Below, piece after piece: positions 11,619 to 45,907 of a DNA stretch of 45,907 nt (position 1 is its first letter; the number at the start of each line of letters is the position of its first letter). The stretch is from Thermoleophilia bacterium (GTDB lineage: Bacteria; Actinomycetota; Thermoleophilia; BMS3ABIN01). The position numbers and the translations under genes were made by a program. The stretch lies in the NCBI GenBank assembly GCA_041658445.1, contig JBBAAB010000001.1, positions 1 to 45,907 of the forward strand, read 5' to 3'. A model generated the notes under the pieces. The model saw only the letters and a program-made list of their open reading frames with translations. It was not told the DNA's origin and made no database searches.

Positions 11619-11638
11619 GCACGGAAGATGAGGGTCAA

Positions 11639-11968: not shown

Positions 11969-11977
11969 CGCCCGTGC

Positions 11978-12066: not shown

Positions 12067-12089
12067 GGCTCCACGCAGGAGGTGGAAAC

Positions 12090-12281: not shown

Positions 12282-12283
12282 CC

Positions 12284-12310
12284 GTATAACAACTCGCTGG
12301 AGCGGACGCC
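12284..12310 (+). repeat. Truncated attC (5' arm only; deletion derivative of the c2-type site)
   Basis: GTATAAC-AACTCGCTGGAGCGGACGCC is joined directly to the CGCAGTTGGAGGATGAAATG leader. Confidence 0.7.
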
Positions 12311-12327
12311 CGCAGTTGGAGGATGAA

Positions 12328-13407: not shown

Positions 13408-13422
13408 GGAGTCTGGGCGACT

Positions 13423-13674
13423 ATGAACACTCCGGAGCGCGTTGGAAGATGGGCGCTGGGCGACATAGCCGAGAGGAAGCACGATAGGAAGTTGTATCGC
13501 GTAGTCGGGTTCATTCTCCACCCGGCGGTTGCGTTTGCCCCGCTAGACGATGGGCCGGAAATGGTTCAAGTTGCCGGATGCCCAAATGAGTTGAACGAAT
13601 TGGTATGCTATACTCCGTCGCCCAACGATACTTTGGGCGCGGACCAAACGAACAAGTCCCCGGCAGGGGCATAA
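13423..13674 (+). CDS. Hypothetical protein
   Basis: TAAGGAGTCTGGGC RBS context. Confidence 0.6.
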   Translation: MNTPERVGRWALGDIAERKHDRKLYRVVGFILHPAVAFAPLDDGPEMVQVAGCPNELNELVCYTPSPNDTLGADQTNKSPAGA

Positions 13675-13689
13675 GGGAGGAGGACGGGG

Positions 13690-13860
13690 ATGACTGAACA
13701 CCTAACCCCCGAGGACGTTGTGGAAGAAGTCAAGAGGATCGTCTGGGTCAATCCAGACGATTACAGGCAGGCACTGGACCAGTTGGACGACATAGCCGAT
13801 TTGGTCAAGAAGTGCCGAGTTAATTCTGATGCCCCGAAAGGGGATGGGAAGGAGGAATAG
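13690..13860 (+). CDS. Hypothetical small acidic protein (56 aa)
   Basis: GGGAGGAGGA RBS; hand translated. Confidence 0.5.
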   Translation: MTEHLTPEDVVEEVKRIVWVNPDDYRQALDQLDDIADLVKKCRVNSDAPKGDGKEE

Positions 13861-13861
13861 A

Positions 13862-14206
13862 ATGTCTGTAAACCTGTTGAGTGTTGCCGCCGTCACCACC
13901 GTCATCTCGCTGATCTTCACGATTCTTGTGCAGTATTTCCCGGTAATCAACGTGAAGTGGGGCGGCCTGCCCAAGGAGACGAAGAAGTATGTCGTCCTGG
14001 GCGGGTACATCGTCGTCGGAGCCGTCGTTGCATGGGGAGGCTGTCTTGACCTGCTGGTCAAGTTCATCCCGCAACTTTTGTGTGTCGAGCCGGCCGCGTT
14101 CCTGGACTACCTTGGCGGAGTAGTCATCGCCGTTGGTTTGGGCCAGGGCGTGTTTGGTTTGGCGCCAGAAGCCGAGGCCGTCAAGTTCGCAAAATCCTTG
14201 CGGTAA
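13862..14206 (+). CDS. Multi-pass membrane protein (holin-like? speculative)
   Basis: GGAGGAATAG RBS; three hydrophobic segments. Confidence 0.55.
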   Translation: MSVNLLSVAAVTTVISLIFTILVQYFPVINVKWGGLPKETKKYVVLGGYIVVGAVVAWGGCLDLLVKFIPQLLCVEPAAFLDYLGGVVIAVGLGQGVFGLAPEAEAVKFAKSLR

Positions 14207-16844: not shown

Positions 16845-17585
16845 CTATCCCCCAATCTCTGGATGGAGTTTCTCAAGTCGAGAGACTCGTTCTTCGATGG
16901 TTAGCGGCGGCTTGAAGCCGTCTAGTATCCTGTCGTCAAATGTGTTGAAGTCCTGCGCGCCACTGGCCCACGGATACTTACCCGGATTAGGAATGTCCCC
17001 CGCCCACTGCCAGCCGATGACGTTCTCTCGCGGAACACCGGGAGGTAGCGTTCTCGGGCCGGGCCAGTAGGGATTGAAGTTGGCCGGGATGGGTTCCTTG
17101 TAGAACAAGTACGCGGCAAAGACGAATTGGTAGTCCTTCGCCCACGAGACATCGCCAATGTTGTCTTTCCACCAGTAGACACCCGTGTAGACGATTGGCC
17201 TTCTAAGAAAGTCCTGTTCAATGCCCAACAGGTAGTCGTGGACGTGCGTCCGCTTCTTCGCCAGCGGTATTGTATTGTTCGGCGGCTCGAACGGGTGCTG
17301 CTCGATGTCCGCAAACGGAGGCAAGGGAGTGGGTTCTGGTGCGCACTTCTTGAACCACGCCGCCTGTGACGGTGCGGTCGCGGTCATCTTGAGGAAATGG
17401 TACGGCCCAAACGGCGCAACAGGAAGACACGCCAGCCTCTTGGACTGGTACGTCTTGTCTTGCATCCCATTTCCCTGCGTGCCCTCGCCGGCCTTGAAAT
17501 AGAACACAGACTGCCCGCTCTTTACCGCCAGCGCAAAGTCAACCGTTTCGTTGTAGTGGGAGTAGTCTTGGCCTTGAACGGTCAT
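16845..17585 (-). CDS. GH25-type muramidase endolysin
   Basis: DYSHYN..FYFKAGEG..GPYHF..WQWAGD pattern typical of glycoside hydrolase family 25. Confidence 0.75.
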   Translation of the reverse strand: MTVQGQDYSHYNETVDFALAVKSGQSVFYFKAGEGTQGNGMQDKTYQSKRLACLPVAPFGPYHFLKMTATAPSQAAWFKKCAPEPTPLPPFADIEQHPFEPPNNTIPLAKKRTHVHDYLLGIEQDFLRRPIVYTGVYWWKDNIGDVSWAKDYQFVFAAYLFYKEPIPANFNPYWPGPRTLPPGVPRENVIGWQWAGDIPNPGKYPWASGAQDFNTFDDRILDGFKPPLTIEERVSRLEKLHPEIGG

Positions 17586-17738: not shown

Positions 17739-20330
17739 TTAGAATGGGTATATAAGCGTAAAATTAGCGCTCTTGTTCCCGGAGGCCGTCCAGTTGTTAG
17801 TTGTGCCAACGCCCTTAGATAACACGCACACCAGGCCAAGCGCGACCGATTGTTGGGTTGTAAGTGAGCAAAGAGCGCCGTTGTCTACCCCCAGTCCAAT
17901 GCTCTGGAAATTAGTGGAGGTTGGAGCAACTGGCGTTGTGTACGAATGCGTTGCCGACGTACTCGTGCCATCCGCCGATGCGCCTATGACTACGGCGCAC
18001 ATTACCCCGGCCATCATAAACTTGGCGGTAAACGTGGGTGGCGTTGCCCCAAAACCGACAACGGTGGGAACGTAATTGAACCACCCAGGGAACCCCTGCG
18101 GGTTCTCGATGTAGCTGTAGTAAGGACTCGTGATTGCCGCATTCGCCAGCGTGTAGTCGCTGCCGCCAGTAACCGTCACGGTTGTATTCGGTGCGCCATA
18201 CGAGGATGCGGTGACGTAGAAGTATTTTGCTGTCGTCTGCGTCAGCTTGATCTTGGTGCCCTTCTGGTACTTCGCCGTCAAATCAGTCGGCACAGTGAAC
18301 GTTGTCGCACTCGCATATGTCCACGTCTCGTTGGCGAAGTTCCAGCCGGTGTAATCACTGGCCTGCATGTCGCCTAAGACGGTCAGCGCAGCGTCTCCAG
18401 AAACAGGCGACCGCAGGATGCCGACATTGCCAGCCGCCGTCACCTTGAGTCCCCCTGTCCCCCCGCCGGTAATCTGCCCACCGAGAACCAGGCCTCCGCC
18501 GGTGACTTCCTTCACGCTCACGTCGTCGAAGTAGGCGATGCCGCCGGCGGCGGTGGGCGCAGACAAGTAAACCTCAAGTTCGGCTGCCCCGGCGGTGGCG
18601 GTGAACACTATAGACACTTGGGTGTAGGTTGCCCCCGCTACGCCCGTTGTGTCCCAGGGTCCAGAGGTTATATTTTGGCCGTTGGTTCTGCCATAGAGGG
18701 AATAGAACCCGGCATTTGTACCATCGCCCCGTGTCCAAAATGAGACCTGATAGGTCACTCCGGGCGTAATCGGTACGGAGGCTTGCCAGACATATACGGC
18801 GTTTGGAAGGCCGCTGCCCGTCAACTTCGCCGCATCTGCTCCCGAGTGAACCAGTGTCGTCTCGTTAGCAAGCGCACCGCCTCCAACAACCTCCGTCCAG
18901 TTCGCCCAAATATCCGCCCCACCTCCGCCCGCAGTCTCGAAGCCGGGGTTGGTGAGGAGTTCAGAGCCGAGGTCGTATATCTTTACATCTCCGCCAGCCA
19001 CCTCTAGCTTCTTGGTGGGCGTCGCCGTGCCAATGCCTATCCGGTCGTTGCCCCCATCTACGAACAGACAGTTGGCATCACCATTGGACTCAACTCGGAA
19101 GTCCACATCATTGGACGCCTCGTTGAAGACAATCGCGGCAGGACGGAAGTCCGCTATGGTTCCTGCGGTCGTATCTCCAATCTGGACTGCGCCTAGCCCG
19201 GCATCCAGAACCAGCAGACTTGTCGCGGTGTCTCCTTCCATGCGAATGTCGGCATCTGCGCCCGCTTCGTTCAGCACGATACTCGCAGCTCTAAAGTCGG
19301 CAATCGCCCCTGCAACTGTCGTCCCGATTTGTACTGCGTCCAGCCCGGCGTCAAGCATCAGCAATCTAGTGGCCGTGTCTCCCCCAAAGATGAAATCAAT
19401 GTCCGCCGCCCCGGAGTTCCATGTGGCCACCAAGTCGTTGGTGATGTTCAGGAAATACGTTGTAACCCCGCCCCTGCTTTGATACAACTCGAACGCCTTG
19501 GCCCCGTCCGACGTTGATGATTGAACATATAGCGTTGTCTGTGGAGTGTAAGTTGCTATCGGTGCGCTTGACGCCTCAAGTAGCGCCGTCCCCACCGTAA
19601 CTCCGGCCAGGGCATTGCCTCCCATAAGATGTAACTGGGCCTGGCCAACTGCGACCTCGTAGGCATAGGCATCTCCGACCTTGCCAAGACTGGCGTCGTT
19701 CCACTTGACGCGGCACGCCGCATCGGTGCCGCCCGTTAGGGTTATGCCATCCGACTTCAGCGCCACCACGCCGCCGCCGAATGTGGCGGCCCCAGTCGTA
19801 TCGAAGTATCCCTGAGTTGTAGTTCCCCCGCGCACCAATATCTGCCCGGCGCTGGCGTCCCACAGCAGGTTCGCCTTGCCACTGGAGTTGTCCCCAAACA
19901 GAATGTCCCCCGCGCCCATTGATTCGGAGTTGTACGTCTGTGCGTTCGAGAAGATGGAGAACGAGGTTGTGGCAGGAGCCGCAATGTTGGAGCCGAAGAA
20001 CGCATCCCCGTCAGACTGCAAATGGATACGGTCCGTCGTATTCGTAATCAGCAGGCTGCCGCCGGAGACGGTGACGTTTCTGAAGGTCGCAGTCCCGTCG
20101 CCCTTCACCTGCCAACCCGTACTTGAGGAGAACACAGTCGAGGATAGCTGGTCGCGAACAACCAGAGAGGTGACGAGTTCTGATCCCCGGAACAGATTTG
20201 CAACACCGGAGACGTTCCGCTGCATCGAGTCAAGGGCTTTAGCGAAGGCTTTAGTGTCCTTCTCGCCGCTCTTTTGGACGCCCTCTTTCAGGGCGTCAAC
20301 GAAGCCTTTACCCAAGGTCGCCACTACCAC
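17739..20330 (-). CDS. Tail fibre / receptor-binding protein with a CBM4/9-like carbohydrate-binding module
   Basis: 863 aa, Gly/Thr/Ser-rich beta-type sequence. The segment NPGFETAGGG..W..W...FWTRGDG..AYFDDVSV resembles CBM_4_9. Confidence 0.65.
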   Translation of the reverse strand: MVVATLGKGFVDALKEGVQKSGEKDTKAFAKALDSMQRNVSGVANLFRGSELVTSLVVRDQLSSTVFSSSTGWQVKGDGTATFRNVTVSGGSLLITNTTDRIHLQSDGDAFFGSNIAAPATTSFSIFSNAQTYNSESMGAGDILFGDNSSGKANLLWDASAGQILVRGGTTTQGYFDTTGAATFGGGVVALKSDGITLTGGTDAACRVKWNDASLGKVGDAYAYEVAVGQAQLHLMGGNALAGVTVGTALLEASSAPIATYTPQTTLYVQSSTSDGAKAFELYQSRGGVTTYFLNITNDLVATWNSGAADIDFIFGGDTATRLLMLDAGLDAVQIGTTVAGAIADFRAASIVLNEAGADADIRMEGDTATSLLVLDAGLGAVQIGDTTAGTIADFRPAAIVFNEASNDVDFRVESNGDANCLFVDGGNDRIGIGTATPTKKLEVAGGDVKIYDLGSELLTNPGFETAGGGGADIWANWTEVVGGGALANETTLVHSGADAAKLTGSGLPNAVYVWQASVPITPGVTYQVSFWTRGDGTNAGFYSLYGRTNGQNITSGPWDTTGVAGATYTQVSIVFTATAGAAELEVYLSAPTAAGGIAYFDDVSVKEVTGGGLVLGGQITGGGTGGLKVTAAGNVGILRSPVSGDAALTVLGDMQASDYTGWNFANETWTYASATTFTVPTDLTAKYQKGTKIKLTQTTAKYFYVTASSYGAPNTTVTVTGGSDYTLANAAITSPYYSYIENPQGFPGWFNYVPTVVGFGATPPTFTAKFMMAGVMCAVVIGASADGTSTSATHSYTTPVAPTSTNFQSIGLGVDNGALCSLTTQQSVALGLVCVLSKGVGTTNNWTASGNKSANFTLIYPF

Positions 20331-24464: not shown

Positions 24465-24673
24465 TCGCTTCCGTCCCCGTCGCGGCCCGTCTTCTTGATG
24501 GACGGCGATTGGAACTTGCCGCCCCAGACGACGGCCATTCCTGCCGCGGGGGCCCTCTCAAGCCTTGTGCCGTCTACCGGGCACTCCAGTTTCAATGTGT
24601 CTCGCCACTCAGCCCTGACGTTAATCTCGTGTGTGTGCCCACATTTCGGGCAGGAGTAGTCGTAGCGAGGCAT
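24458..24673 (-). CDS. FmdB-family zinc-ribbon protein
   Basis: MPRYDYSCPKCGH...CPVDG pattern. Confidence 0.65.
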   Translation of the reverse strand: MPRYDYSCPKCGHTHEINVRAEWRDTLKLECPVDGTRLERAPAAGMAVVWGGKFQSPSIKKTGRDGDGSEW

Positions 24674-24975
24674 TACGGGGCTCCGACGTTACTAAGCCAG
24701 ACGTAGCCAATCGCCCCCGTCCCGGTGATGTCAACGTAGAGGCCGATAGAGGGGAATGAGATTCCTCCCAACTCTGCGAAGTTCACGAAGCACCCCTGGT
24801 TGGCGACGGTGTTCATCTCAAAGATGTTTGTCGCCAGTCCGTCGGCGTCGTCAGTAAATTGCATGGACGACGCGTCCGATCCGGCGAACAGATACGCCGC
24901 GTACAGAATACACGGGTCGTTGCCAACAATGGCATCCGCCGTAATTCGTACAAGACAACCCTGCGGAAGAGACAT
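24673..24975 (-). CDS. Small virion-module protein, paralog of 24984..25274
   Basis: Shared FE(M/C)NT..Q..F(V/I)(N/D)F.ELGG..F.....YVD(I/L)TG.G..(Y/C)VW. Confidence 0.6.
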   Translation of the reverse strand: MSLPQGCLVRITADAIVGNDPCILYAAYLFAGSDASSMQFTDDADGLATNIFEMNTVANQGCFVNFAELGGISFPSIGLYVDITGTGAIGYVWLSNVGAP

Positions 24976-24983
24976 GGAACCTC

Positions 24984-25274
24984 CTATGCGTACCAGACGC
25001 AGGCAACGCCACCCGCGCCGGTCAGGTCAACGTAACAGGCGGTCGAGAAGTAGACGCCGCCCAGTTCTCGGAAGTCGATGAAGTGCGACTGCCCGATGAT
25101 CGTATTGCACTCGAACATGTGCGTTCCCGTTGCGTCAACGGCGTTGTGGAACTCCGCCTTTGTGGCAGCCGCCCCCCCATACAGCAGAATGGCCATGACG
25201 TTGCACGGGCTCGTCCCATTTACCTGCCCGTCGGCTGCAACTCTCTTGAATGCGTACTGGTTTAGGCTTTTCAT
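24984..25274 (-). CDS. Small virion-module protein, paralog of 24673..24975
   Basis: ATGA coupling with the GT2 stop; alignment by eye to the neighbour. Confidence 0.6.
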   Translation of the reverse strand: MKSLNQYAFKRVAADGQVNGTSPCNVMAILLYGGAAATKAEFHNAVDATGTHMFECNTIIGQSHFIDFRELGGVYFSTACYVDLTGAGGVACVWYA

Positions 25275-25972
25275 GCAAGGGCTACTCCCGCGTGCGCGCA
25301 CGCAATATCCCAGTCGATCAGAACCTCGAAGCCCGCCCCAATAACTTTGCGGCAAATCTCAAGGTCCTCTCCCAGATAGAGGCTGTAGGGTCTTTCCCCC
25401 ACCGCCTCCGCAACTTCTCGGCTCATCAGCCAGCACCCCGCCCCCGCACCCCCGACGCTCTCCAGCCCCTTGCCCGGCACCCGTCTAAGTCGATACTGGT
25501 GGATTCCCTTCGCGTCGAGTTCGTGATAGTCGTACACGCACGGGAAATACGGTTCCGCCTTGATCCTGTACCATCCCCCAACCATTGGCTTCTTGTGCGC
25601 CAAGAGTCTGTCCAAGAAGTCGGGAGGAGGAAGAACGTCGCTGTCCAGCATCACCAACCACTCGGAACTTGTCTTTAGGAAGTTCTCGTGGAGGGTGTTC
25701 CTGGCATCAAGAATGTACGTCGCCTGGGTTGTGCATATGTTGTCCCACGGCATCATGGGAAGCCTTAGCATGTTGACAACCCACTTGGAGAAGATCACCT
25801 CGTCCAACGGAAAGGCCCACGTCACGGCCATTCTCCGCAGCTTAACAACCTGCGTGTTGTGGATCGTCTCTCCGGTAACATCCTTGGTGATGTGCTGTGA
25901 GTCTTTAGGGGCCAACTCTGCTAGTTTGTTGGCAAATGCCGCGCTTGATCCGCCGTGTCGTTTCCTCGTCAC
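25271..25972 (-). CDS. Family-2-like glycosyltransferase (start uncertain: GTG 25972 or ATG 25831)
   Basis: LVMLDSDVLPPPDF (DxD) with flanking GT-A-like segments. The GTGA overlap with the upstream stop supports 25972. Confidence 0.6.
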   Translation of the reverse strand: MTRKRHGGSSAAFANKLAELAPKDSQHITKDVTGETIHNTQVVKLRRMAVTWAFPLDEVIFSKWVVNMLRLPMMPWDNICTTQATYILDARNTLHENFLKTSSEWLVMLDSDVLPPPDFLDRLLAHKKPMVGGWYRIKAEPYFPCVYDYHELDAKGIHQYRLRRVPGKGLESVGGAGAGCWLMSREVAEAVGERPYSLYLGEDLEICRKVIGAGFEVLIDWDIACAHAGVALA

Positions 25973-27299: not shown

Positions 27300-27890
27300 C
27301 TACTGCTCGATATAGGTGATTTGCACCCTATACTGCCCCGCCTCAGTTGCGGCGATACCAGTATGTCGACAGAACAACTTGCCCCCAGCCGCCACAACCC
27401 CCGTTACGAGGGCGAACGTCTGGGTATCCCCGATGGCCTTACTCCCTACGAGCGCCGTGGCCCCCACGTGCTCTGCACCGGCGGCAGCAGACCCGATCTT
27501 GAAATTTGCCTCCGCAGCACCCGAGGCATCCGTGGCCTCGGTATAGACGCCGACGACGCTCAAGAGCGTTGCCGCCCTCGGGAAGTAGAACACATCGTCA
27601 TCTGCCGTCCCCGCGCCGTTGTCGATGTTGTAGACCTTGGTCGCCAAAGTCTGGATGCCACTGAGGAGTGCCCAGTCTGCAACCGCGCTATTGGCCGCAA
27701 CCTTGATCCACGCGGCGACATTGGTCTGATCGGTCGAGACGAAGATGCTTCCCTTTTCCTCCGTTGACCAGGGGGCTATTGTTCCAGCCGGAGTCCCCGC
27801 GCCATAAAGCACGCGGGGCTTCCGAATGGCCATTCCCCCTGCCGGGAGTGCGGGTTTTACGAGGTCCCAACACACTGTACTTGCAGCCAT
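27300..27890 (-). CDS. Capsid-proximal structural protein, paralog of 26671..27291
   Basis: See the paralog entry; lies directly downstream of the major capsid gene. Confidence 0.6.
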   Translation of the reverse strand: MAASTVCWDLVKPALPAGGMAIRKPRVLYGAGTPAGTIAPWSTEEKGSIFVSTDQTNVAAWIKVAANSAVADWALLSGIQTLATKVYNIDNGAGTADDDVFYFPRAATLLSVVGVYTEATDASGAAEANFKIGSAAAGAEHVGATALVGSKAIGDTQTFALVTGVVAAGGKLFCRHTGIAATEAGQYRVQITYIEQ

Positions 27891-27899: not shown

Positions 27900-29039
27900 C
27901 TACGCCGTGGTCAGGAAGGTGTTTACGTTGCTGTGAGCCTTCTCAAAAGCCACGACTAGACCGTACTCTCCGACAACCTCACCATACCCACCGGGGGCCG
28001 AGTCACCAAGCTTGCCGAGTTCCTCATAGAAGAAGTCGTCAATCGTGATGAACCCAACGTACCGACGGTCGATGAGCCACAGGAAGTTCGTCGGGCAGTG
28101 GCGGTCCACAACCACGTCGATTTCCCCGCCAGCAATGGGATTAATCATCTTGTCGATGACAATTCCACCGCGGGTCTCGTCGCGCTCGGTGCGGACGTAG
28201 CCATCGAAGAAGCTGCCGATCTTGCGCTTCGCCCAGGAGTTGCACAGGATCAAGTCCGGTGAACCCCCGGCGTCAAAGCACTGTTGAACCTCGTCCTCGA
28301 TCATCTTCTGCGTCAGAGCCGCCGAAGAGGCCGAAGACGGGTTCGTGGTGACGAAGGCTGCCAGCCCGCCAAGAGAACGCGGGGTCGAGGTCGTGCCAAC
28401 CGCGCGCTGCCCGTGGTAGAGGCTGAGGTTCAGCTTCATGAGCAACTCGTCCATGGCCTTGTCGATCTCGCGCTCCACAACGCCCGAAATCCCGTACTGC
28501 GGGATCAGGGCGTTCGTGCGGGAAACGTTGATCGGCTTCTGAAGGATGGCCGAGTAGTTGTATCCGGTCGTCGGCTCGGTGAAGCCGTTGTTCGTGCCAA
28601 CGGCCGCACCTTCCAGGCGCGAGTTGTACCGGATGTACACGGTGGACGTTGAGGCGTGGGTCGCCTGCGTCCCGCCAAAGTCACGGGTAACGGTCAGCGT
28701 GTTCGTGCTGATGGCCGAAACCCACATGTACTCCGAGTCAATCTGGATCACGTCACCGATATTGAACTTCGTTCCGTCCGTCATCGCGATTGTGGTCGTG
28801 GTCGTAACGGAGGTCAGATTCACATCGGCAGCGGTGTCCGAGCGCAAGAGGTAAGTGTCCTCAAGCCACTCGTAGGACCGACCCGGAGTGTTTACGAACG
28901 AGAACTTGCTTTCATTGTGCAGCCCCAGAGCATTCAGGCCCGCGATACTCATCGGGTCGGCTAGAATGATCCGGTCTGTCACCATCCGCTTCTGCGGAAG
29001 CGTGGCAGAGTATGACTGCTGGATTCCTTGCCCGGCCAT
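27900..29039 (-). CDS. Major capsid protein, HK97 fold (SU10-MCP/DUF5309-like)
   Basis: 379 aa, downstream of the scaffold. YEWLED and TVTRDFGGT-type motifs are recalled from the SU10 capsid family. Confidence 0.8.
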   Translation of the reverse strand: MAGQGIQQSYSATLPQKRMVTDRIILADPMSIAGLNALGLHNESKFSFVNTPGRSYEWLEDTYLLRSDTAADVNLTSVTTTTTIAMTDGTKFNIGDVIQIDSEYMWVSAISTNTLTVTRDFGGTQATHASTSTVYIRYNSRLEGAAVGTNNGFTEPTTGYNYSAILQKPINVSRTNALIPQYGISGVVEREIDKAMDELLMKLNLSLYHGQRAVGTTSTPRSLGGLAAFVTTNPSSASSAALTQKMIEDEVQQCFDAGGSPDLILCNSWAKRKIGSFFDGYVRTERDETRGGIVIDKMINPIAGGEIDVVVDRHCPTNFLWLIDRRYVGFITIDDFFYEELGKLGDSAPGGYGEVVGEYGLVVAFEKAHSNVNTFLTTA

Positions 29040-36661: not shown

Positions 36662-38518
36662 TCATACCGGCATCTCCGCAGAGTTTCCAGCGCGTGTCTC
36701 CCCGGTCTGTTGCTCCATGATGTTGGCGTTGGGGTTCATCTGCGCCGGAGGGGTACCGCCCATGGCCGGGTTCATACCCATCCCCTCGGCTCCCTGCATA
36801 CCAGGCGTTCCAGTTGCCGGAGGGGCGCCCATCGCCCCGGAGACTTCGGGGGCCATTCCCTGCTGCTGTTGCATGGCCTGTTGGAGCATCCCCTGCGCCA
36901 TTTGAGCAGCCAACTGTTGGAGTTCTCCAGAGGCTTCGGCTTGAATCTTGGTGACGATGCCCTGGAGTTCAGCCATGTCGAACTGCTCTCGCATCCAGTC
37001 GTCCTTGAGACCTTCTGGGTCGGAGTATCCGAGTTCCTCGTACACCTTCCGCAGAGGAACGTTGGCCTGCTTCGCCAACAGGGTCGCGGCGTTGACCTTC
37101 TGGAGCCTGTCCGTCGGAGTTCCGGGAACCAATTCCACTCGGATGCGGATGTTGTCCGGGTCAATCTCGTCCGAGTCCAGCGTGTACATTTCCTTCTCGC
37201 CGCTCTTTCCTACGGTGTAGCCCTTCAGGTCCTCGCCCGAATAGTGGCACCACAGGAGCATCAACTCGTAAGCCTTCTCCCACCATCTCTCACCCTCGCG
37301 CTTGAACGGCAGTAGTTGCCCAATGGCAGACTGCATTCGGAGGTTGTATCCAGAGTAGCTTTCCCCAGGATTGGCCTCAACGTTCATCAGGATTGGAGGC
37401 ACGGAGGCCGAGGCCATCAGTCCTTCAAAATACTGCCACGCCTCCTTCATCGCCGGGTCAAGGGGGTGGTCCTGCATGTCCAACACATCGTTGGGCGACG
37501 TAACCTCGTACTCAATTCCCGGTTCGGAGAAGTTGGTCTTGACGCTTGACGGATTGGGGCCAATCTTCTTCCTCTTGGCTCGCCCCATCTCTGCAATCGC
37601 CTGCGAGATTACCAGCGTACCGAGGATGTTCGTGGTCTCCCACGTCTGCCCCGCCCACAGGGGATGCAAAAGCCCGTGTCTCTGATACTTGGCATCACTC
37701 TCCAGGGCCGTCCCGCCAACCACTGCCGCCCACGGAAGGAATGGGTATTCATTCTCTCTCGGGGGCATAATCACGTAGGCCGGAGAACCGCCAGCTGTCC
37801 GGTCCTCGGCGTCCCCCTGCATGACCCATACCGCACGGGAGTCGTGGTCCATGTAGTCGTACAAAACACAATCTTCATACCAATCATCTTCGTCGTCTTC
37901 AATGTCGTTTCGCAGGTCCTTTGCGGCATCGCCCCAGAAGTCCACGACTTCCTTCTTGGTCATCACGGCGACTCTGAGAACTTCCTCAAGCATGTAGTCC
38001 GAATGGGTGGCGTGGACCTGTTGCGGGTTTGGCAGAACCACCGCAAACGGACCATCTCTAAGGGCGGCGATCTGCCTTCGCGGGTTCCCGCCCATCGACT
38101 TGATTGCTTTGATCTGCGTCGGAAGGTGGACTACCTGCCCCACAATCTCGTCGTACAGCAGGGCCGACCCGATAACGTCCTCTCGGGAAGACGCCCGTCT
38201 CCTCATGGCAAGGTCCATGTTCCACTGGAGAACGCTCTCGACCTTGTGCGACCACCTTCGGGCTTCGTCGGAGTTGTCCATCGGGTCACAAGTTATAACC
38301 TCGTTCATCCCCGACAGGACCCTTCGCCCGGCCTTGAAGGCAAGATATGGGGTGGCGCTAATCAGCCTTCGTACCCAATCCAGACTCGCAAGACTGTCCG
38401 GAAGGACGTACTCGAAGTGGATCATTTCGTCCGTCTTCAACTGTTGATCTCGAAGGTCTTTGTCCCTCTCGAACAGGGCATTCGCCAGGCCGAGATAGTA
38501 GTCTAGTTTACGGACCAT
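36662..38518 (-). CDS. Portal protein
   Basis: 618 aa immediately downstream of and overlapping TerL; Gln/Met/Gly-rich C-terminus. Confidence 0.7.
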   Translation of the reverse strand: MVRKLDYYLGLANALFERDKDLRDQQLKTDEMIHFEYVLPDSLASLDWVRRLISATPYLAFKAGRRVLSGMNEVITCDPMDNSDEARRWSHKVESVLQWNMDLAMRRRASSREDVIGSALLYDEIVGQVVHLPTQIKAIKSMGGNPRRQIAALRDGPFAVVLPNPQQVHATHSDYMLEEVLRVAVMTKKEVVDFWGDAAKDLRNDIEDDEDDWYEDCVLYDYMDHDSRAVWVMQGDAEDRTAGGSPAYVIMPPRENEYPFLPWAAVVGGTALESDAKYQRHGLLHPLWAGQTWETTNILGTLVISQAIAEMGRAKRKKIGPNPSSVKTNFSEPGIEYEVTSPNDVLDMQDHPLDPAMKEAWQYFEGLMASASVPPILMNVEANPGESYSGYNLRMQSAIGQLLPFKREGERWWEKAYELMLLWCHYSGEDLKGYTVGKSGEKEMYTLDSDEIDPDNIRIRVELVPGTPTDRLQKVNAATLLAKQANVPLRKVYEELGYSDPEGLKDDWMREQFDMAELQGIVTKIQAEASGELQQLAAQMAQGMLQQAMQQQQGMAPEVSGAMGAPPATGTPGMQGAEGMGMNPAMGGTPPAQMNPNANIMEQQTGETRAGNSAEMPV

Positions 38519-40136
38519 GTGTCGCTCCTAAACTTGCAAACGGGTTCTTTTGCTTCTTCGGCGCAAACCACGGAGACGGAACATCCGTGCTTGCCTCGGT
38601 TGGGATCAGGAACAGCCCCGCCGCTGCCAATGCGTAGTAGACGGCATCCAGGGTGTCATCGTGCGTCTTCTGGGTCCCGTCCCACGAAACCCACTCATCT
38701 CTGAATGCGGTGAGGAATGGCGTCGCCCCATCGGATACCCACACGCGGGAGAACTCGAAGTGCTTGGCCATCACGCTTTCAAATCGGAAGCCCTTGGACC
38801 TTCCCTGGGTTCTGAGGGGGATGACAGGGAGGGTTCCAATGGATGCCAATTGATTGTAGAACTCCTCCCCCTTACCATCCATCTCGACACCGATGTTTAC
38901 AAGCGTCGGGTACATGTACGCGTACGCGCGAACCTTGGCCTCCGCCTCTCCTCTTGAAAGTCGCTCTCGAATGCCGTCCTGAATGACCAGTCCCCCGCTG
39001 GGCATTCCTCTCACTACCGCGAGGCCGAAGTAGTCCCTGCCCTTGTCCCTCAGATGGTCGGATGTGGAGGCGTAGTCAATTCCGAAGTACGTCGGCCATG
39101 TCGAGCCAATGCGCTCTGGAGGAAAGTCGTGCAGCCACTCCCGCTTGAGGTTCATTCCCTCGGCAGCCGTCAGGTCAAGCATGTATGCTTTTGCGAAGCC
39201 CTTGGCCCCGGACTTCCTGTACGCCTTGGCGATTCTCTCCGGGCCGAACTTCTCCGGCCACGCCGGTTTGGCCCAAACGGAGTAGGCCACAATCCCATCG
39301 TCGGCCACTTCGATGTATTCTGCCCCCTCGTCCTTCTTGTCGCAAATCTTCATCACGGGGGTCTTGACCCATCGGTAAACCCCGGTCCCCTTGGCCAAAG
39401 CCAGAGCGTCGTTTCTGGTCCACGGGGTCTGGCAGAAGGTGTGCCAAAGCCCAGGGTCCTCGGTGATCGGGTAGAGAGTGTCGGTCAGAATGGCGTTGAC
39501 CTCAATGTTTCTGGCGTCAGACCGCGTGTTCTTGTCGGTGTTGATGTCGTCAATCGCCAGCAACCCAGTAGGATGGGAGCCCGTCAAGACGGTATCCGTA
39601 TATCCAACTCCAACCAGAGTTGGGTCCTTGGCCCTCAACTGTTGCCAGTCTGCCTCCCGGTCCTTGTCGATTACCCAGTACCCCTGCGCCCCCCAGCCCT
39701 TCGCCTCATCCGGAACGACGTTGCGGAAGAACAGCCTCCAAGATGGGTTTCTGGTAATGATGTCCGCAACATTCCCGGAGTGTTTGGCCGCCTGCTTGTC
39801 GTCTCCCTGAACGAACAGGTTGGACTTATGTGGCTCCAGCCCGATCCTGTACGCGGTGAACGTCTCCGTTAGTGTCGTGGTCTTGGTCGAGCCGCGGAAC
39901 GCCTCGGCCCCAAAGAACATGTCCTGCTCTCGGGCCGCATACAGTGCGGCAACCCACTCCCTACAGTGTCTTGGAAGAGGCCGGTGCCGGACAAGCTCGT
40001 AGAACACACGGAAGCCGTCCGGGCTGTCTTCTCGGACCATTGCCTTCGCTTGCTCTACAACTTCGGTCTTCTCCGTAAGTTCTCCCTTGCGGGCCTCGCG
40101 GACAAAGCGCCGAATGATCTCCTCTGCCCTATCCAA
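38508..40136 (-). CDS. terL: Terminase large subunit
   Basis: ATPase-like FRGSTKTT segment and C-terminal nuclease-like FGIDYASTSD..LAVV motifs. TTG start with a GGAGGA RBS. Confidence 0.8.
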   Translation of the reverse strand: MDRAEEIIRRFVREARKGELTEKTEVVEQAKAMVREDSPDGFRVFYELVRHRPLPRHCREWVAALYAAREQDMFFGAEAFRGSTKTTTLTETFTAYRIGLEPHKSNLFVQGDDKQAAKHSGNVADIITRNPSWRLFFRNVVPDEAKGWGAQGYWVIDKDREADWQQLRAKDPTLVGVGYTDTVLTGSHPTGLLAIDDINTDKNTRSDARNIEVNAILTDTLYPITEDPGLWHTFCQTPWTRNDALALAKGTGVYRWVKTPVMKICDKKDEGAEYIEVADDGIVAYSVWAKPAWPEKFGPERIAKAYRKSGAKGFAKAYMLDLTAAEGMNLKREWLHDFPPERIGSTWPTYFGIDYASTSDHLRDKGRDYFGLAVVRGMPSGGLVIQDGIRERLSRGEAEAKVRAYAYMYPTLVNIGVEMDGKGEEFYNQLASIGTLPVIPLRTQGRSKGFRFESVMAKHFEFSRVWVSDGATPFLTAFRDEWVSWDGTQKTHDDTLDAVYYALAAAGLFLIPTEASTDVPSPWFAPKKQKNPFASLGATHGP

Positions 40137-40788
40137 GAATGTCCTCCAGCCTCACGCGCGGGTAGGCGCGTAACTCCCCGCCAATTCCCGCGTTGGCAAT
40201 CTTGACGCCCCGCTTTTGGCACTCCTGCATTGCAATACCGTGGGCCTCTTCTAACACCCGGTTCCACCTTCTTGCCTGTTCGGCCTTGTAGGCGTCTGGG
40301 GGGAGGTATCCTCTAATGAACCAGTTCTGATTGTCGGCGTCTCTGTAGCCGAGGTCACACCCAACCACGTAGAGTTCGTCGTATCCCATACGTACGGCCA
40401 ACTGGATGGCCATAAGAGCCGACCCCCCAAAACGACATAGTTGCGGGAGGTGCCACGGCCCGCCCCATTGTTCTGGTTGGGTCGAGTCCATTGGTGACAT
40501 GTGCTCACAGACGACCTCTCGGTGTAGATTTGGACGATCCGGAACGTCGCATTCTATGTCGTCTCGGATGAAACACTCCTCGCCCCAGTCCAGGTGTTTT
40601 ACGATGTCCTCTTGCCAGACCCCTTGACTCTGCCTCGTTCTGTCGAACGCACACCAGTATGTCGGGCGCCACCGGGTTTTAGGATAGAGAAGATGTATCC
40701 TGTTCAGCCCGAACGTTACTTCGTCCGCGAGTCTATCCATCGGAGTTCTGTTCAGGCTTGGCCCATTGCCAATTACGAAGCAGCGCAC
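40129..40788 (-). CDS. GNGPSL glycosyltransferase paralog A (CstII/Maf-like)
   Basis: VRCFVIGNGPSL (GTG start, GGAGGAAG RBS), YVVGCDLGY. Confidence 0.6.
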   Translation of the reverse strand: MRCFVIGNGPSLNRTPMDRLADEVTFGLNRIHLLYPKTRWRPTYWCAFDRTRQSQGVWQEDIVKHLDWGEECFIRDDIECDVPDRPNLHREVVCEHMSPMDSTQPEQWGGPWHLPQLCRFGGSALMAIQLAVRMGYDELYVVGCDLGYRDADNQNWFIRGYLPPDAYKAEQARRWNRVLEEAHGIAMQECQKRGVKIANAGIGGELRAYPRVRLEDILG

Positions 40789-41450
40789 ACTTCCTCCAGA
40801 GAAGCCCGTGGATAGACCTCCAGCGCCCCGCCAACGCCGGCGTTCATAATCACAATGCCGCGGTCGATGCACTCCCTGTTCGCAAGCTCGTGCGCGTACG
40901 CCTGCGCTCCGGTTAGATACGCCGCCCACTCGGGGTCGTAGGGGCGGAAGTTGAAGTAGTCCTCAGAGAAGTGGTTGTTCTCCCCCGGACGGTAAATCAG
41001 GTCACACCCCAACAGATAGACTTCGTCAAACCCCATCGTGACGGCCAGTTGAATTGTCGTCAGGACGGAACCTCCAAAGACGCACAGTTGCGGCAGGTGC
41101 CACGACTTCGGCCACCACTCCCCATGCCCAATTCTCGTCCCGTGCTCCATGCACAGGTCCATCTTTTCAAACCTTGCGGTCGGCTGAATGTCCCAAACCC
41201 CCATCCTGGTAAAGTGCCTCGGGGCGATGAAACAATGCTCCCCGAGGTCCCGGTGCAGGAAGAACAACTCCGCCCACTCGTCTATCGGCATCTGCAAGTC
41301 CCTGTCTGTGCAGACCCAGTATGTTGGCCGCCACTTGGTTAGCGGGTAGATCAGATGGCATTGGTTGACGCCGAAGGACACCTCGTTGACCAAGAGATTC
41401 AGATTCGTCTTTGCCAGCGAAGGCCCATTCCCTAGAACGAAGCAGCGCAT
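40773..41450 (-). CDS. GNGPSL glycosyltransferase paralog B
   Basis: MRCFVLGNGPSL, YLLGCDLIY, ENNHFSEDY. Confidence 0.65.
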   Translation of the reverse strand: MRCFVLGNGPSLAKTNLNLLVNEVSFGVNQCHLIYPLTKWRPTYWVCTDRDLQMPIDEWAELFFLHRDLGEHCFIAPRHFTRMGVWDIQPTARFEKMDLCMEHGTRIGHGEWWPKSWHLPQLCVFGGSVLTTIQLAVTMGFDEVYLLGCDLIYRPGENNHFSEDYFNFRPYDPEWAAYLTGAQAYAHELANRECIDRGIVIMNAGVGGALEVYPRASLEEVCAAS

Positions 41451-42151
41451 ACTTCCTCAAGGCTGACCCTCGGGTAGACATCCAAAGACCCGCCGACCGT
41501 GGCGTTGAACACCCAGACCCCGTGCTCCTTGCACCACCTGGCAATCAGATCGTGCATCGCACTCCCCAACTCGTTGTTGAACTTCGCTCTGTCTTCAGTG
41601 TGTATCTCCAAGTTGGCCTCGTAAGCACGGTCGAAGTGGTTCGTGTCTTCGTCCCCCTCTAGTACGTGCCAGTCCAGATCACAACCAACCAGATACAGTT
41701 CGTTGTATCCCATCTTGATTGCTTGCTGCATCATCGGCCCCATGCCGGTTCCGAGTTTGCACAGAACCCCGTCCTCTTTCGGGAAGCACCACTCTTCGGG
41801 CCAGTCCTTCCCTGGAGAGGCGCAGAGGTGGTCAACGTGGAACTGCCACGGGTGAACCCACTCCGGCAGTTCCTCCAGCCACGCGACTGGGTGCGACCGC
41901 CACTTCCCAAGAAGCTGTTCGCATATGTCAGCCCTGACATAGCACTCCTCCCCGGAGACAATGTGGGAGATTAGGGCCTCGCGGTCATCCTCTCTTTGGG
42001 GGAGATCGGACCACATGAAGTACGTCGGCCTCCAGTTGGTCTTCGGATACATAAGGTGAATGCGGTTCATCCCGAAGGACGGTTCTCCCGCAATCATGTT
42101 TAGATTGGTCCGGTTCAGGCTCGGACCGTTCCCCACAAGGAACATTCTCAT
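41432..42151 (-). CDS. GNGPSL glycosyltransferase paralog C
   Basis: MRMFLVGNGPSL, YLVGCDLDW, DTNHFDRAY. Confidence 0.65.
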   Translation of the reverse strand: MRMFLVGNGPSLNRTNLNMIAGEPSFGMNRIHLMYPKTNWRPTYFMWSDLPQREDDREALISHIVSGEECYVRADICEQLLGKWRSHPVAWLEELPEWVHPWQFHVDHLCASPGKDWPEEWCFPKEDGVLCKLGTGMGPMMQQAIKMGYNELYLVGCDLDWHVLEGDEDTNHFDRAYEANLEIHTEDRAKFNNELGSAMHDLIARWCKEHGVWVFNATVGGSLDVYPRVSLEEVCAASF

Positions 42152-42675
42152 GCGCGTTCAAACACCGCCATGTTGCCGCTCATGGTTACGAGCCGCCAGT
42201 CGCTTTCCGTCTTGGCGTTCTCGACGGCTTTCTCCACCGGGCTTCCCTCGTTGCAGTCATGGAACAGGATGAACCTCTTGGTGATGTCCTTTACGTTGTT
42301 CCAGTCGTTTATTGGAGCATCGCCCTCGTGGTCTCCGTCGATGAACGAGACAACAGGTTTGATGTCTCCAGCGGGAAACGGGTGCGAGTTCTGGTAGAAC
42401 ACCTTGTACGGAAGCCCGAGCCCAAGCATCAGCTTCTCGATCTCTGGCTTCCAGCCAAGCCCGTTCTCAATGCCGTAGATACTGCCGCCCTGCTTCAGAT
42501 GCCGCTTGATGAGCCCGGCGAAGGCAAGACTTCCGCCGCGGTTCACGCCGATCTCAAGATAGTCTCCGTCGCCCGCCTCCAAGATGCACGCCTCCAGGGC
42601 GAACTTCTCCTCGGGGGCCATGAGCCACCCCTTTGTTCCGTTACGGTAGAGTTCGTTCAGGCCGTCCAGGATCAT
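42148..42675 (-). CDS. Class I SAM-dependent methyltransferase (Methyltransf_24/TylF-CmcI-like), paralog 1
   Basis: GDGDYLEIGVNRGGS (SAM-binding loop) and FIDGDHEGD. Confidence 0.65.
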   Translation of the reverse strand: MILDGLNELYRNGTKGWLMAPEEKFALEACILEAGDGDYLEIGVNRGGSLAFAGLIKRHLKQGGSIYGIENGLGWKPEIEKLMLGLGLPYKVFYQNSHPFPAGDIKPVVSFIDGDHEGDAPINDWNNVKDITKRFILFHDCNEGSPVEKAVENAKTESDWRLVTMSGNMAVFERA

Positions 42676-43208
42676 TTGCGCCTCTCAAACAGGGCCATGT
42701 TTCCCGTCCCGATAATGTAGTTCCATGCGGGGTCCTTCTGGCATACTTCCTCGACGGCCCTCTTTACTCCTGGGTGGGTGTGGAAGTCATGTAGCAGGAT
42801 GAACCTCCCCGTTCTGGCACTAAGGTTTCTCCAGTCTTTCACGACCCACTCGCGCGCGTGGTCTCCATCTATCAGGGCAACGACGGGTCTCAGGTCTCCC
42901 GCGGGCCACGGGTCAGAGTTGGCCTCGATAGCCTCGATCTCTACATTGAACTCTGCCGCGTGCTTCACAACCAGGTCGAACCCCGAATGCTTGTTCTGGA
43001 AGTTGTCTATCCCGTATATTTTCCCAGACTGTCCCAATCGTCTCTTGAGTAGACCAACGAAGATGGCGCTTCCGCCTTGTTGAATCCCAATTTCCAGGTA
43101 GTCCCCATCGCCGGCCTCTAAGACGGCGCACTCTAGGGACATCACGTCGTCGGGCTCCATCGTGAACCCGTAGAACCCCAGCTTGTCCTTGACCTCGTGG
43201 AAGATCAC
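42672..43208 (-). CDS. Class I SAM-dependent methyltransferase, paralog 2 (GTG start inferred by alignment)
   Basis: GDGDYLEIGIQQGGS and LIDGDHARE. The start was chosen so that the length matches paralog 1. Confidence 0.55.
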   Translation of the reverse strand: MIFHEVKDKLGFYGFTMEPDDVMSLECAVLEAGDGDYLEIGIQQGGSAIFVGLLKRRLGQSGKIYGIDNFQNKHSGFDLVVKHAAEFNVEIEAIEANSDPWPAGDLRPVVALIDGDHAREWVVKDWRNLSARTGRFILLHDFHTHPGVKRAVEEVCQKDPAWNYIIGTGNMALFERRK

Positions 43209-44437: not shown

Positions 44438-44833
44438 TCAACTGTAAACCCCGGCCCGGTACAACTCGGACACAATCCCTCTCTGTATCTGCCCCGCCCA
44501 GAATGCAATGTCCTCTTCTATGGCCCGCGCCCCCGCCTGATCTCCCCGAAACTTGTGCCGGAATATCTTCGGCGCATTCCGCATTAGCCAGCAAGCAGCA
44601 TGGACGCTCTCGTGTGCCACAACCTCCGTCCCCAAACACCCCCTGCTGAAGTGGATATTGGAATACTTGCTTCCCATATCCACCAATGTCGCCCTGCCCC
44701 ACCGACCCTTTGCCCCATCTCTGGTAACAGCATCCCACATCTGCTCGCGGTTGGCCCAGACATACACGCGAACCTTGCGCCGGGTGCCCGTAGCCGACAG
44801 CGAGAACCGGTGAACAGGCTTCGTTTTCTTCAT
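44438..44833 (-). CDS. Putative zinc metallopeptidase-like protein (HESVH)
   Basis: HExxH motif VAHESVHAACW. Confidence 0.5.
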   Translation of the reverse strand: MKKTKPVHRFSLSATGTRRKVRVYVWANREQMWDAVTRDGAKGRWGRATLVDMGSKYSNIHFSRGCLGTEVVAHESVHAACWLMRNAPKIFRHKFRGDQAGARAIEEDIAFWAGQIQRGIVSELYRAGVYS

Positions 44834-45372
44834 GGCTTACCCCCGCCACCGGCGAATTGCACCGGGGCAGAACTTCTCATGTCGCATACGAATTGGTATC
44901 TGTCCTCGTCCTGAAGCCAAGATCGTAGTTCTTTCGAATTTTTGGAATTATTGCACTTCGGGCACGCCGGGACAATGTTCTCCTTGGTGTACCCGCCGCC
45001 CGACTTGACCGGAACAACGTGATCCTGGTCAACGGCCGTCAATACAGCATCGCAGTAGGCGCAGCGATTGCCGAAGGCGGCTAGCGTATCCAGCCAGCCC
45101 GCGGCGGTCAGCGTGGCCGGAAGCCCGCGCACAGCAGCCTTGCGGCGCTTTGCCTTGGCCCGGCCATTTGCCGCCTGGCGGGCAGCGTAGCCAGGACTGG
45201 CGGCAAGCAATGCCCTGTAGCTGGCCCGCACCGTTGCCCGCCTACACTCCAAACATGCCCGCTTGAACTTGGGAATTTCCGACCCGCAGCCACAATATCT
45301 GGGCGGACGCACGCGGTTGGCCGTGCGCCACCTTGCTCTTGCCCGCCTGTCATCTGCATTTTTATATGGCAT
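44830..45372 (-). CDS. HNH endonuclease
   Basis: DQDHVVPVKSGGGYTKENIVPACPKCNNSK plus an N-terminal Cys-rich region. Confidence 0.8.
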   Translation of the reverse strand: MPYKNADDRRARARWRTANRVRPPRYCGCGSEIPKFKRACLECRRATVRASYRALLAASPGYAARQAANGRAKAKRRKAAVRGLPATLTAAGWLDTLAAFGNRCAYCDAVLTAVDQDHVVPVKSGGGYTKENIVPACPKCNNSKNSKELRSWLQDEDRYQFVCDMRSSAPVQFAGGGGKP

Positions 45373-45602: not shown

Positions 45603-45907
45603 CTACCCACTCTCCTCGTCCCCGTAGGCTCTCACCAGCTCAGGACCTATGTTGATCTGTACTGCTACAGTCGGCATGCTTGCCTTGTCGGCCTCTGGCA
45701 GCATCTTTGCAAGCCGGAGGGCGAACTTGCCTGCCTCGACACCCTCTCGTGGCTTATTCATGGCGTTGGCTAGCGCACTTCTAGCGAACTCGCCGGCCAG
45801 CTCGCCATATGCGTCGCTTGGCCTGCCGCCGGGCTTGCCCGTATGTTCGGTGTACACCTCCACAAGAGCCGCGCGCGCCTTAGAGGCCGCAAGCTCCTGC
45901 CGGCGTG
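45603..45907 (-). CDS. 3' part of the wrap-around gene begun at 317
   Basis: Same frame through the 127-nt repeat; stop at 45603. Confidence 0.55.
   Translation of the reverse strand, partial: RRQELAASKARAALVEVYTEHTGKPGGRPSDAYGELAGEFARSALANAMNKPREGVEAGKFALRLAKMLPEADKASMPTVAVQINIGPELVRAYGDEESG
45781..45907. repeat. Terminal direct repeat copy 2
   Basis: Identical to nt 1-127. Confidence 0.95.

Follow-up and report, generated by a model that had tools for sequence, protein, structure and literature searches.

We analyzed a 45,907-bp stretch of DNA (hereafter, the window) that carries, directly upstream of the gene for the terminase large subunit (terL), two genes for methyltransferase-like proteins (MT-A and MT-B) and three tandem paralogs (G1, G2, and G3) whose products share a GNGPSL motif. 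A fourth paralog (G4) and a gene related to GT2 glycosyltransferases lie elsewhere, among the structural genes. The window ends with an exact 127-bp direct repeat of its beginning (positions 1–127 are identical to 45,781–45,907), and because of this repeat we consider that it was assembled as a circle and represents the complete genome, about 45.78 kb long, of a tailed phage without a classification. NCBI lists it as a contig in the metagenome-assembled genome of a “Thermoleophilia bacterium,” with every gene named “hypothetical protein.” The phage contig was probably binned with the bacterium, and this assignment is therefore not a reliable guide to the host. The seven glycan-related genes take up about 4.3–4.6 kb, or about 10% of the genome, as a preliminary description of the sequence had estimated.

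MT-A, MT-B, and G1–G3 form one overlapping string with terL and the portal gene (Table 1). These seven genes overlap serially from 43,208 to 36,662, all on the minus strand, in the order MT-A, MT-B, G1, G2, G3, terL, and portal. At the successive junctions, the overlaps are ATGA, ATGA, 19 nucleotides (nt), 16 nt, 8 nt, and 11 nt. (The ATG of MT-B overlaps the stop codon of MT-A as ATGA, and the stop codon of G3 overlaps the start of terL.) Shine-Dalgarno-like sequences (GAGGA or GGAGGA) precede G2, G3, and terL, and a promoter and terminator scan, which performed at chance level, found no terminator-like site on the minus strand from 43,208 to 36,662. The preliminary description had proposed that five coupled genes at 43,208–40,129 lie upstream of terL; their coordinates, their strand, and the overlap at every junction were confirmed. 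The MT-A product is the same 178 amino acids (aa) as JGI gene call P0241.

The proposed paralogy also holds: G1–G4 are 36–46% identical to each other, with 51 invariant columns, and MT-A and MT-B are paralogs as well. All four GNGPSL proteins have the GNGPSL and (L/V)(L/V)GCDL motifs that had been described for them, but the third motif, NHF, reads NWF in G3, and G1 begins MRMFLVGNGPSL (MRMFLV), with F-L-V instead of F-V-(L/I). The LEIG..GGS and IDGDH motifs are present in both methyltransferases. The junctions between G1 and G2 (41,432–41,450) and between G2 and G3 (40,773–40,788) have the sequence GAGGAAGT(A/G)TGCGCTGCTTC in common, in which the C-terminal codons of the upstream gene (“...LEEVCAAS”) double as the ribosome-binding site and the MRCF start of the gene that follows. 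The overlapping junction was therefore copied in register by the duplications.

The second gene set, G4 and the GT2-like gene, lies about 1.3 kb downstream of the capsid gene, inside the structural module between the capsid and tail genes. Both genes had been noted before and were confirmed. The open reading frame (ORF) of the GT2-like gene is open to 26,125, and its likely start is the ATG at 25,831 or nearby. Its product matches Glyco_transf_21 with 22.7 bits (cut-off 21.7), Glyco_tranf_2_3 with 25.8 bits (cut-off 27), and PHROG 12406 (“glycosyltransferase”) with E = 2.6e-6.

Table 1. Coordinates of the genes discussed in the text, with the genes under study first
Feature	Position	Strand	Evidence or remarks
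MT-A, S-adenosylmethionine (SAM)-dependent sugar O-methyltransferase-like, 178 aa	42672..43208	-	GTG start; Methyltransf_24, RMNT_CmcI
MT-B, paralog of MT-A, 175 aa	42148..42675	-	43% identity to MT-A
G1, first GNGPSL paralog (PF01973/GT42-like), 239 aa	41432..42151	-	family hidden Markov model (HMM), E = 4e-73
G2, second GNGPSL paralog, 225 aa	40773..41450	-	AlphaFold2 (AF2) model, hhalign to GT42, BFVD
G3, third GNGPSL paralog, 219 aa	40129..40788	-	GTG start at 40788; PHROG 4603 “alpha-2,3-sialyltransferase,” E = 1.6e-6
G4, fourth GNGPSL paralog, 214 aa	25969..26613	-	38–39% identical to G1–G3; PHROG 4603, E = 3.4e-9
GT2-like (GT-A) glycosyltransferase	25271..25831	-	Pfam, PHROG 12406; DSD motif in translation
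terL, terminase large subunit	38508..40136	-	PHROG 38, E = 2e-53; Terminase_6C
Portal protein	36662..38518	-	PHROG 156; overlaps terL by 11 nt
Major capsid protein, SU10-type	27900..29039	-	PF17236 SU10_MCP, E = 1e-49
Two paralogous Ala/Gly/Thr-rich proteins, 206 aa and 196 aa	26671-27291, 27300-27890	-	between capsid gene and G4; 51% identical
Second pair of small paralogs	24673-24975, 24984-25355		just downstream of GT2-like gene; 40% identical over 95 aa
Giant ORF, 1,917 aa	29867-35620		between portal/373-aa gene and scaffold-like/capsid genes; no Pfam match
863-aa protein with CBM_4_9 carbohydrate-binding domain	17739-20330		adjoins GH25 gene
GH25 muramidase (endolysin)	16845-17585		
LAGLIDADG homing endonuclease	349-786		PF00961, E = 3e-13
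HNH/endonuclease VII-like protein	44830-45372		PHROG 1035, E = 3e-19; about 1.6 kb upstream of methyltransferase genes

The GNGPSL proteins had been likened to CstII-type sialyltransferases (GT42) and to Maf transferases. Distant homology to these enzymes was upheld, and bona fide membership in either group was not. We compared a profile of the GNGPSL family with all PDB sequences. There were 11 matches, of which the top 10 were to CstII, CstI, 9c08 (a CMP-Neu5Ac--lipooligosaccharide alpha-2,3-sialyltransferase, which is another GT42), and the Maf protein 5mu5. The best match was to CstII (E = 1.9e-4 over columns 1–161, with the HMMER alignment spanning CstII residues 1–167); the match to Maf was weak (E = 0.068), as was the 11th match, to a putative nucleotide-diphospho-sugar transferase (E = 0.87).

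We also compared a profile of 61 aligned family members with a GT42 profile built from 40 aligned homologs, for which the CstII sequence was rebuilt and verified against 2wqq. Global alignment with hhalign gave a probability of 96.5% (E = 8.8e-10, 205 columns). In local mode, the probability was 82–91%, mainly from the N-terminal GNGPSL region, and only the N-terminal ~40 columns were aligned with CstII as a single sequence or in default local runs with the GT42 profile. Because the full-length relationship emerged only with -mact 0.01 or -glob, we ran negative controls, and these (the methyltransferase family and a reversed GT42 alignment) gave 0.0–0.4% in comparable runs. The global alignment pairs GNGPSL with CstII residues 8–13 and GGS...GY..IYL.GCDL with TSG...GYKEIYLSGIDF; that is, the GNGPSL loop and the central TSG...GY.EIYL.G.DF motif have the same order and spacing as in GT42.

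Among the 61 family members, 57 match PF01973 (MptE-like/DUF115/Maf_flag10) at E ≤ 0.01 (best E = 1.3e-10), and relatives that are fused to other domains score 78–117 bits. Some true GT42 proteins carry matches to both PF06002, the Pfam family for GT42, and PF01973, and the central pfam01973 domain of Maf is structurally CstII-like (PMC11339370). Given these dual matches, the CstII-like domain of Maf, and the profile-profile result, the link between PF01973 and GT42 is sound at the superfamily level. G1–G4 also match PHROG 4603 (“alpha-2,3-sialyltransferase,” E = 1e-5 to 3e-9). None of the window's proteins and none of the 61 family members matches PF06002, and NCBIfam has no meaningful match for any GNGPSL protein. 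The AF2 model of G2 has seven strands and high confidence (predicted local distance difference test score [pLDDT] of 95.8), and it matches viral DUF115/MptE-like models in BFVD with a template modeling score (TM) of 0.55–0.68. (We regard the Rossmann and short-chain-dehydrogenase-type Foldseek matches of this model in the PDB as uninformative and as no sign of an epimerase.) A word-indexed search identified 2,956 relatives, and an exhaustive HMMER search identified at least 11,483 representatives of 50%-identity clusters at E ≤ 1e-3, of which 1,211 had E ≤ 1e-30.

By these comparisons, the phage GNGPSL proteins are a divergent branch of the PF01973 superfamily that falls below the curated threshold for membership. 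We therefore place G1–G4 in the PF01973/GT42 superfamily as a single-domain branch of their own that is neither GT42 nor Maf proper. As in the CstII/CstI/Lic3-type enzymes, an N-terminal hydrophobic strand leads into GNGPSL, an Asn follows in an (R/Q)xN..Y segment, and a central loop of small residues precedes GY..IYL.G.D(F/L). The two groups are also similar in size and predicted number of strands, are soluble cytoplasmic enzymes, and are joined by a specific profile-profile link. In contrast to GT42, which acts on lipooligosaccharide, the GNGPSL proteins have a lid that is about 12 residues shorter and no C-terminal membrane-association tail, and identity is only ~16%. Maf belongs to the same Pfam superfamily and consists of an N-terminal Rossmann-like domain, the central PF01973 domain, and a C-terminal helical domain, for a total of ~650 aa (PMC11339370). 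Unlike Maf, the phage proteins consist of the central domain alone (214–239 aa), without the N- and C-terminal domains; many of the cellular GNGPSL relatives are Maf-sized. Maf enzymes are cytoplasmic protein O-glycosyltransferases that are reported to use CMP-activated sugars (CMP, cytidine monophosphate) to transfer nonulosonic acids, and even ketodeoxyoctonate (Kdo), to Ser or Thr residues of flagellin (PMC11339370; bioRxiv 10.1101/2020.06.03.131540). By analogy, Maf is the best functional model for the glycosylation of a self-assembling structural protein.

The identification of MT-A and MT-B as relatives of the TylF/CmcI-type sugar O-methyltransferases is supported by Pfam (for MT-A), by profile matches, and by the predicted fold. 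MT-A matches Methyltransf_24 (PF13578) with 30.2 bits (cut-off 26.3) and RMNT_CmcI (PF04989) with 23.5 bits (cut-off 23.2), and TylF weakly; MT-B matches Methyltransf_24 with 20.0 bits, which is below the cut-off. A profile of 40 sequences from the methyltransferase family matches the methylmannose polysaccharide methyltransferase MeT1 of M. hassiacum in the PDB (6g7d, E = 1.9e-10, full-length), followed by SpnH, MycF, and NovP. The AF2 model of MT-A (pLDDT 97.6) is similar to MeT1 (TM 0.79–0.81; 6G7D and 6G80 were identified as MeT1 from the Foldseek table), SpnH (0.72), and MycF (0.70). The characterized enzymes (MeT1, SpnH, MycF, NovP, and CmcI) share with MT-A and MT-B an E-I-G-x-x-x-G-x-S loop and an invariant D-G-(D)-H; the invariant residues here are E39, G41, and G45 in the SAM loop and D114-G115-x-H117. 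They differ in being longer (213–280 aa versus 175–178 aa) and are only 17–21% identical. MT-A and MT-B are thus predicted to have the fold, and carry the motifs, of metal-dependent sugar O-methyltransferases of the MeT1, SpnH, MycF, and CmcI type.

The array is conserved in related phages, whose terL and portal genes are homologous and which also encode a giant protein of 1,900–3,000 aa. In IMG/VR loci L001, L002, and L006, three GNGPSL genes are followed by four genes and then terL; in L004, three GNGPSL genes directly precede terL; and L003 has four GNGPSL genes. In L013, the order is GNGPSL, Methyltransf_24, GNGPSL, GNGPSL, and terL, and on the same contig (L016) a capsid gene is followed by GNGPSL and GT2 genes, which matches the arrangement in the window. 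At the first two positions, the genes of the two phages are more similar to each other than are the paralogs within the genome, with identities of 69% between G1 and L001_a and 68% between G2 and L001_b, versus 36–46% among the paralogs. The positional signal is weaker for G3, which is only 46% identical to L001_c, no higher than G3 versus G2. In other arrays, first-position genes and third-position genes pair with each other. Given this positional orthology, the multiplication of the genes goes back at least to the split between these phages, and redundancy among the copies is unlikely: each paralog probably has a separate step, which would differ in linkage, acceptor, or sugar.

What sugar these proteins might transfer is suggested by the genes around their relatives. 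We scanned IMG/VR and screened the ORFs of 45 viral loci with HMMs. In 4–7 of the ~45 loci, the relatives are near CMP-ulosonic-acid synthetase genes. In L005, L010, L014, and L023, genes for a PF02348 cytidylyltransferase and an HpcH/HpaI aldolase adjoin the GNGPSL homolog, and in NCBIfam the cytidylyltransferases match PseF best, followed by KdsB, though neither match reaches the threshold. L010 (IMGVR_UViG_3300010883_019551, 79.7 kb) has an apparently complete ulosonic-acid module at 5,068–13,910: GFO/IDH/MocA and FAD oxidoreductases, a GT29-like sialyltransferase, two PF02348 cytidylyltransferases, the GNGPSL homolog, a KdsA-like DAHP_synth_1 protein, an HpcH aldolase, a SIS-domain protein, and an FkbM methyltransferase. 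Genes of these types are what is required to make, CMP-activate, and transfer a 2-keto-3-deoxy acid sugar. Methyltransf_24 genes adjoin GNGPSL genes in six other viral loci (L005, L013, L015, L018, L021, and L050).

A scan of cellular sequences with the alignment of the four paralogs identified at least 468 relatives, and we examined 79 loci. A cytidylyltransferase homolog lies within 8 kb in 57 of these loci (34 with E < 1e-10, and 12 within 300 nt), as compared to a chance expectation that we roughly estimate at 1%. KdsA-like genes are present in 16 of the 79. The highest-scoring relatives include proteins of 1,000–2,455 aa that combine 2–5 copies of the domain with GT2, GT4, Methyltransf_21, Methyltransf_23, and Methyltransf_24/RMNT_CmcI domains. 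For example, P0281, P0282, P0284, P0298, and P0348 (1,148–2,455 aa) each contain several GNGPSL/MptE-like domains, and BFVD holds a methyltransferase-DUF115 fusion. By their domain content, the giant fusions look like single-polypeptide versions of the phage's gene set. From the neighborhoods and the fusions of the relatives, we infer that G1–G4 are CMP-ulosonic-acid-dependent transferases that help to assemble a glycan in several steps, O-methylation among them.

On balance, the evidence tips slightly toward a late-expressed kit that decorates the virion with a methylated acidic glycan made from host-derived CMP-sugars. G1–G4 would transfer a CMP-activated 2-keto-3-deoxy acid sugar, either Kdo-like or a nonulosonate like pseudaminic, legionaminic, or sialic acid, and together with GT2-type transferases and the O-methyltransferases they would build a short methylated glycan. 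Because the phage has no recognizable genes for sugar activation, the host would supply the CMP-sugar as well as SAM. The coupling to packaging and structural genes and the location of the second set between capsid and tail genes suggest that the enzymes are expressed late, along with the virion proteins. The acceptors would be capsid, decoration, or fiber proteins, which would receive the glycan in the cytoplasm, either ahead of assembly or while it proceeds, and the outcome would be an acidic, methyl-capped glycan coat on the particle. Gene position and the analogy to Maf make virion proteins the most likely acceptors. Candidates are the capsid protein and the two Ala/Gly/Thr-rich paralogs that are encoded between the capsid gene and G4; these paralogs have no match in Pfam or PHROG and may be capsid decoration proteins. 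We hold only tentatively to the most specific version of this proposal, in which uncultured tailed phages of a widespread lineage “sialylate” their virions by three to four ordered minimal Maf/GT42-like steps, a GT2 enzyme, and two O-methyltransferases, using host CMP-sugars to place an O-methyl-capped Kdo or nonulosonate glycan on capsid or decoration proteins.

Several observations weigh against decoration of the virion from host CMP-sugars by CstII- or Maf-like enzymes. Genes for CMP-nonulosonate or Kdo biosynthesis were not found in the window, and the cytidylyltransferase and aldolase partners of the homologs are missing here; that the host can provide the CMP-ulosonic acid is an assumption. 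(The preliminary description had also reported no nucleotide-sugar synthesis genes, and indeed no such domain was detected in the called ORFs at E ≤ 1e-3 with Pfam; most of these ORFs have no Pfam match of any kind, which leaves absence unproven.) About half of the cytidylyltransferase neighbors in the cellular loci are weak matches (E = 1e-3 to 1e-5 versus the seed sequences). The sequence does not prove that virion proteins are glycosylated. As for the family assignment, G1–G4 score just 15–24 bits against PF01973 (the gathering cut-off is 34.6), and the match covers only model positions 140–170 and is restricted to the C-terminal motif. A Foldseek search of the PDB with the G2 model returned only generic Rossmann folds (TM ≤ 0.34), with no CstII, CstI, or Maf among the top 50. 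His188, Tyr156, and Tyr162 of CstII are all invariant in our GT42 alignment; we take His188 to be the catalytic general base and the tyrosines to be phosphate-binding residues of the lid. The global alignment puts His188 in a low-confidence part, off any conserved His. The two tyrosines cannot be mapped, and the lid of the GNGPSL proteins is shorter. In the segment that corresponds to the catalytic region of CstII, the nearly invariant residues of the GNGPSL family are H160, F161, Y165, and H187 (in G2 numbering). H160, the histidine of the NHF motif, is a Trp in G3, which makes H187 (in an “AH” motif) the better candidate for the catalytic base; it is invariant in G1–G4 and nearly so across the family.

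The same enzymes might instead act on the host, by remodeling its surface glycans or glycoproteins (flagellin, pilin, S-layer, or precursors of lipopolysaccharide or capsule). This might block superinfection or change the adsorption of progeny to cell debris. The characterized relatives do act on host structures (lipooligosaccharide for CstII and flagellin for Maf; PMC11339370), and many of the cellular homologs come from flagellated Lachnospiraceae, Roseburia, and Eubacterium and from loci of the polysaccharide type. However, the coupling to terL and portal, the second set amid the capsid and tail genes, and the conservation of this position across divergent phages make a host target unlikely. 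Late, virion-linked expression fits the position better than early takeover or lysogenic conversion would, Pfam identified no integrase or lysogeny module in the window, and the translations have no obvious membrane segments.

We give a similarly low weight to the idea that the GNGPSL proteins are glycosyltransferases with some other nucleotide-sugar donor and that the association with cytidylyltransferases is confined to some branches. It draws on the size of the family, the lack of detected CMP-sugar genes in the phage, identities of under 20% to any characterized enzyme, catalytic residues that the alignment does not place, and the 22 of 79 cellular loci that have no cytidylyltransferase within 8 kb. 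Yet all of the characterized relatives (GT42 and Maf) use CMP-activated ulosonic acids, and PF02348, KdsA-like, and HpcH genes are enriched in both viral and cellular loci, including near viral proteins with E = 1e-45 to 1e-70 versus the family profile.

The preliminary description stated that it would be refuted if profile searches placed the GNGPSL proteins in a non-transferase family, for example only with MptE-type kinases, and this did not come about. The corresponding rival is that they are MptE-type pyrophosphokinases (of pterin or folate metabolism) or other nucleotide-binding enzymes. The sole Pfam family that they match is indeed named “MptE-like,” after the archaeal 6-hydroxymethylpterin diphosphokinase, and the GNGPSL motif may not discriminate between chemistries. 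Still, this is very improbable: all of the meaningful matches to solved structures are sialyltransferases or Maf, we detected neither folate nor pterin genes in the window, and four paralogs in one genome are flanked by sugar O-methyltransferase and GT2 genes. The relatives' fusions to GT2, GT4, and methyltransferase domains, and their adjacency to genes for CMP-sugar synthetases, point to CMP-sugar-dependent glycan assembly. We have equally little belief that the cluster modifies the phage's DNA (by glycosylating or methylating bases) as a defense against restriction, which would explain its site so close to terL and the other packaging genes, given that we detected no gene for a hydroxymethylase, TET/5mYOX, a DNA methyltransferase, or a base-modifying enzyme, that MT-A and MT-B match sugar or small-molecule O-methyltransferases and not DNA methyltransferases, that G4 and the GT2-like gene sit among capsid and tail genes, and that we know of no GT42 or Maf relative that acts on DNA. 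(Phage glycosyltransferases that take part in DNA hypermodification do exist; bioRxiv 10.1101/2023.12.21.572611.)

Returning to decoration of the virion, there are precedents for viruses that do this with other enzymes. Synthesis of the capsid glycan of chlorovirus PBCV-1 involves A064R, which has glycosyltransferase and methyltransferase domains. To our knowledge, the systems of PBCV-1 and of the mycobacteriophages use GT-A or GT-B enzymes with nucleoside-diphosphate-hexose or deoxyhexose donors. As proposed here, the virus's cytoplasmic glycosyltransferases and O-methyltransferases are proposed or were shown to decorate the capsid or tail from host pools. Unlike in those systems, the glycan genes in the window are built into the packaging operon. 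Among mycobacteriophages, virion glycosylation has been described for Che8/cluster F and Corndog/cluster O (PMC11256854; PMC11600133). Our literature search did not identify any report of a PF01973/GT42-like enzyme or of ulosonic acid on a phage virion, and found nothing relevant on DUF115/MptE-like proteins in phages or on nonulosonic or pseudaminic acid on capsids.

Other features of the genome bear on the host and on the phage's relationships. The 863-aa protein with a CBM_4_9 domain is likely a tail fiber or receptor-binding protein, and together with the GH25 endolysin it suggests a host with peptidoglycan and a carbohydrate receptor. The window has no tRNAs that might hint at the host. 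In the related phages L001, L003, and L004, a gene for a protein of 1,928 to 3,000 aa occupies the equivalent position after portal as the giant ORF does here. A tblastn search with G2 against GenBank phages (INPHARED) found no match, and the best matches of terL among GenBank phages are metagenomic phages with 29% identity, so there is no annotated relative from which to borrow a function. We ignored Pfam matches to “Serglycin” in concatenated small ORFs, which are artefacts of Gly-Ser linkers. Outside of this phage lineage, many large viral contigs in IMG/VR (L032–L040, L045, L047, and L048; 39–499 kb, with some the size of giant viruses) have two tandem, more distant GNGPSL paralogs (HMM E = 1e-7 to 1e-19), and BFVD includes DUF115 proteins from the Mimiviridae member ChoanoV1. 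The family is thus widespread in viruses outside of the lineage.

The enzyme superfamilies discussed here were already known, as was virion glycosylation in a few mycobacteriophages. Two things are new. A phage lineage carries minimal PF01973/GT42-like transferases, together with sugar O-methyltransferases, as a conserved array in its late operon, for which our literature search found no previous description, and comparative evidence ties a huge unannotated family to CMP-ulosonic-acid chemistry. If the proposal is correct, the very large family (at least 11,000 clusters at 50% identity) would gain a function, and its compact (~220 aa) single-domain CMP-ulosonic-acid transferases, along with the sugar O-methyltransferases, could be useful for glyco-engineering. 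With its conserved positional orthology, the array would also lend itself to asking how paralogous transferases share out the work of assembling a glycan. If the host surface is the target, then the array would be a new kind of late-expressed module for host remodeling. Virion glycosylation affects antibody recognition and the properties of the particle, and if the virion is the target, then this would be the first bacteriophage system described that glycosylates proteins with ulosonic acids, and it would add an acidic, sialic-acid-like chemistry to the short list of phage virion glycans.

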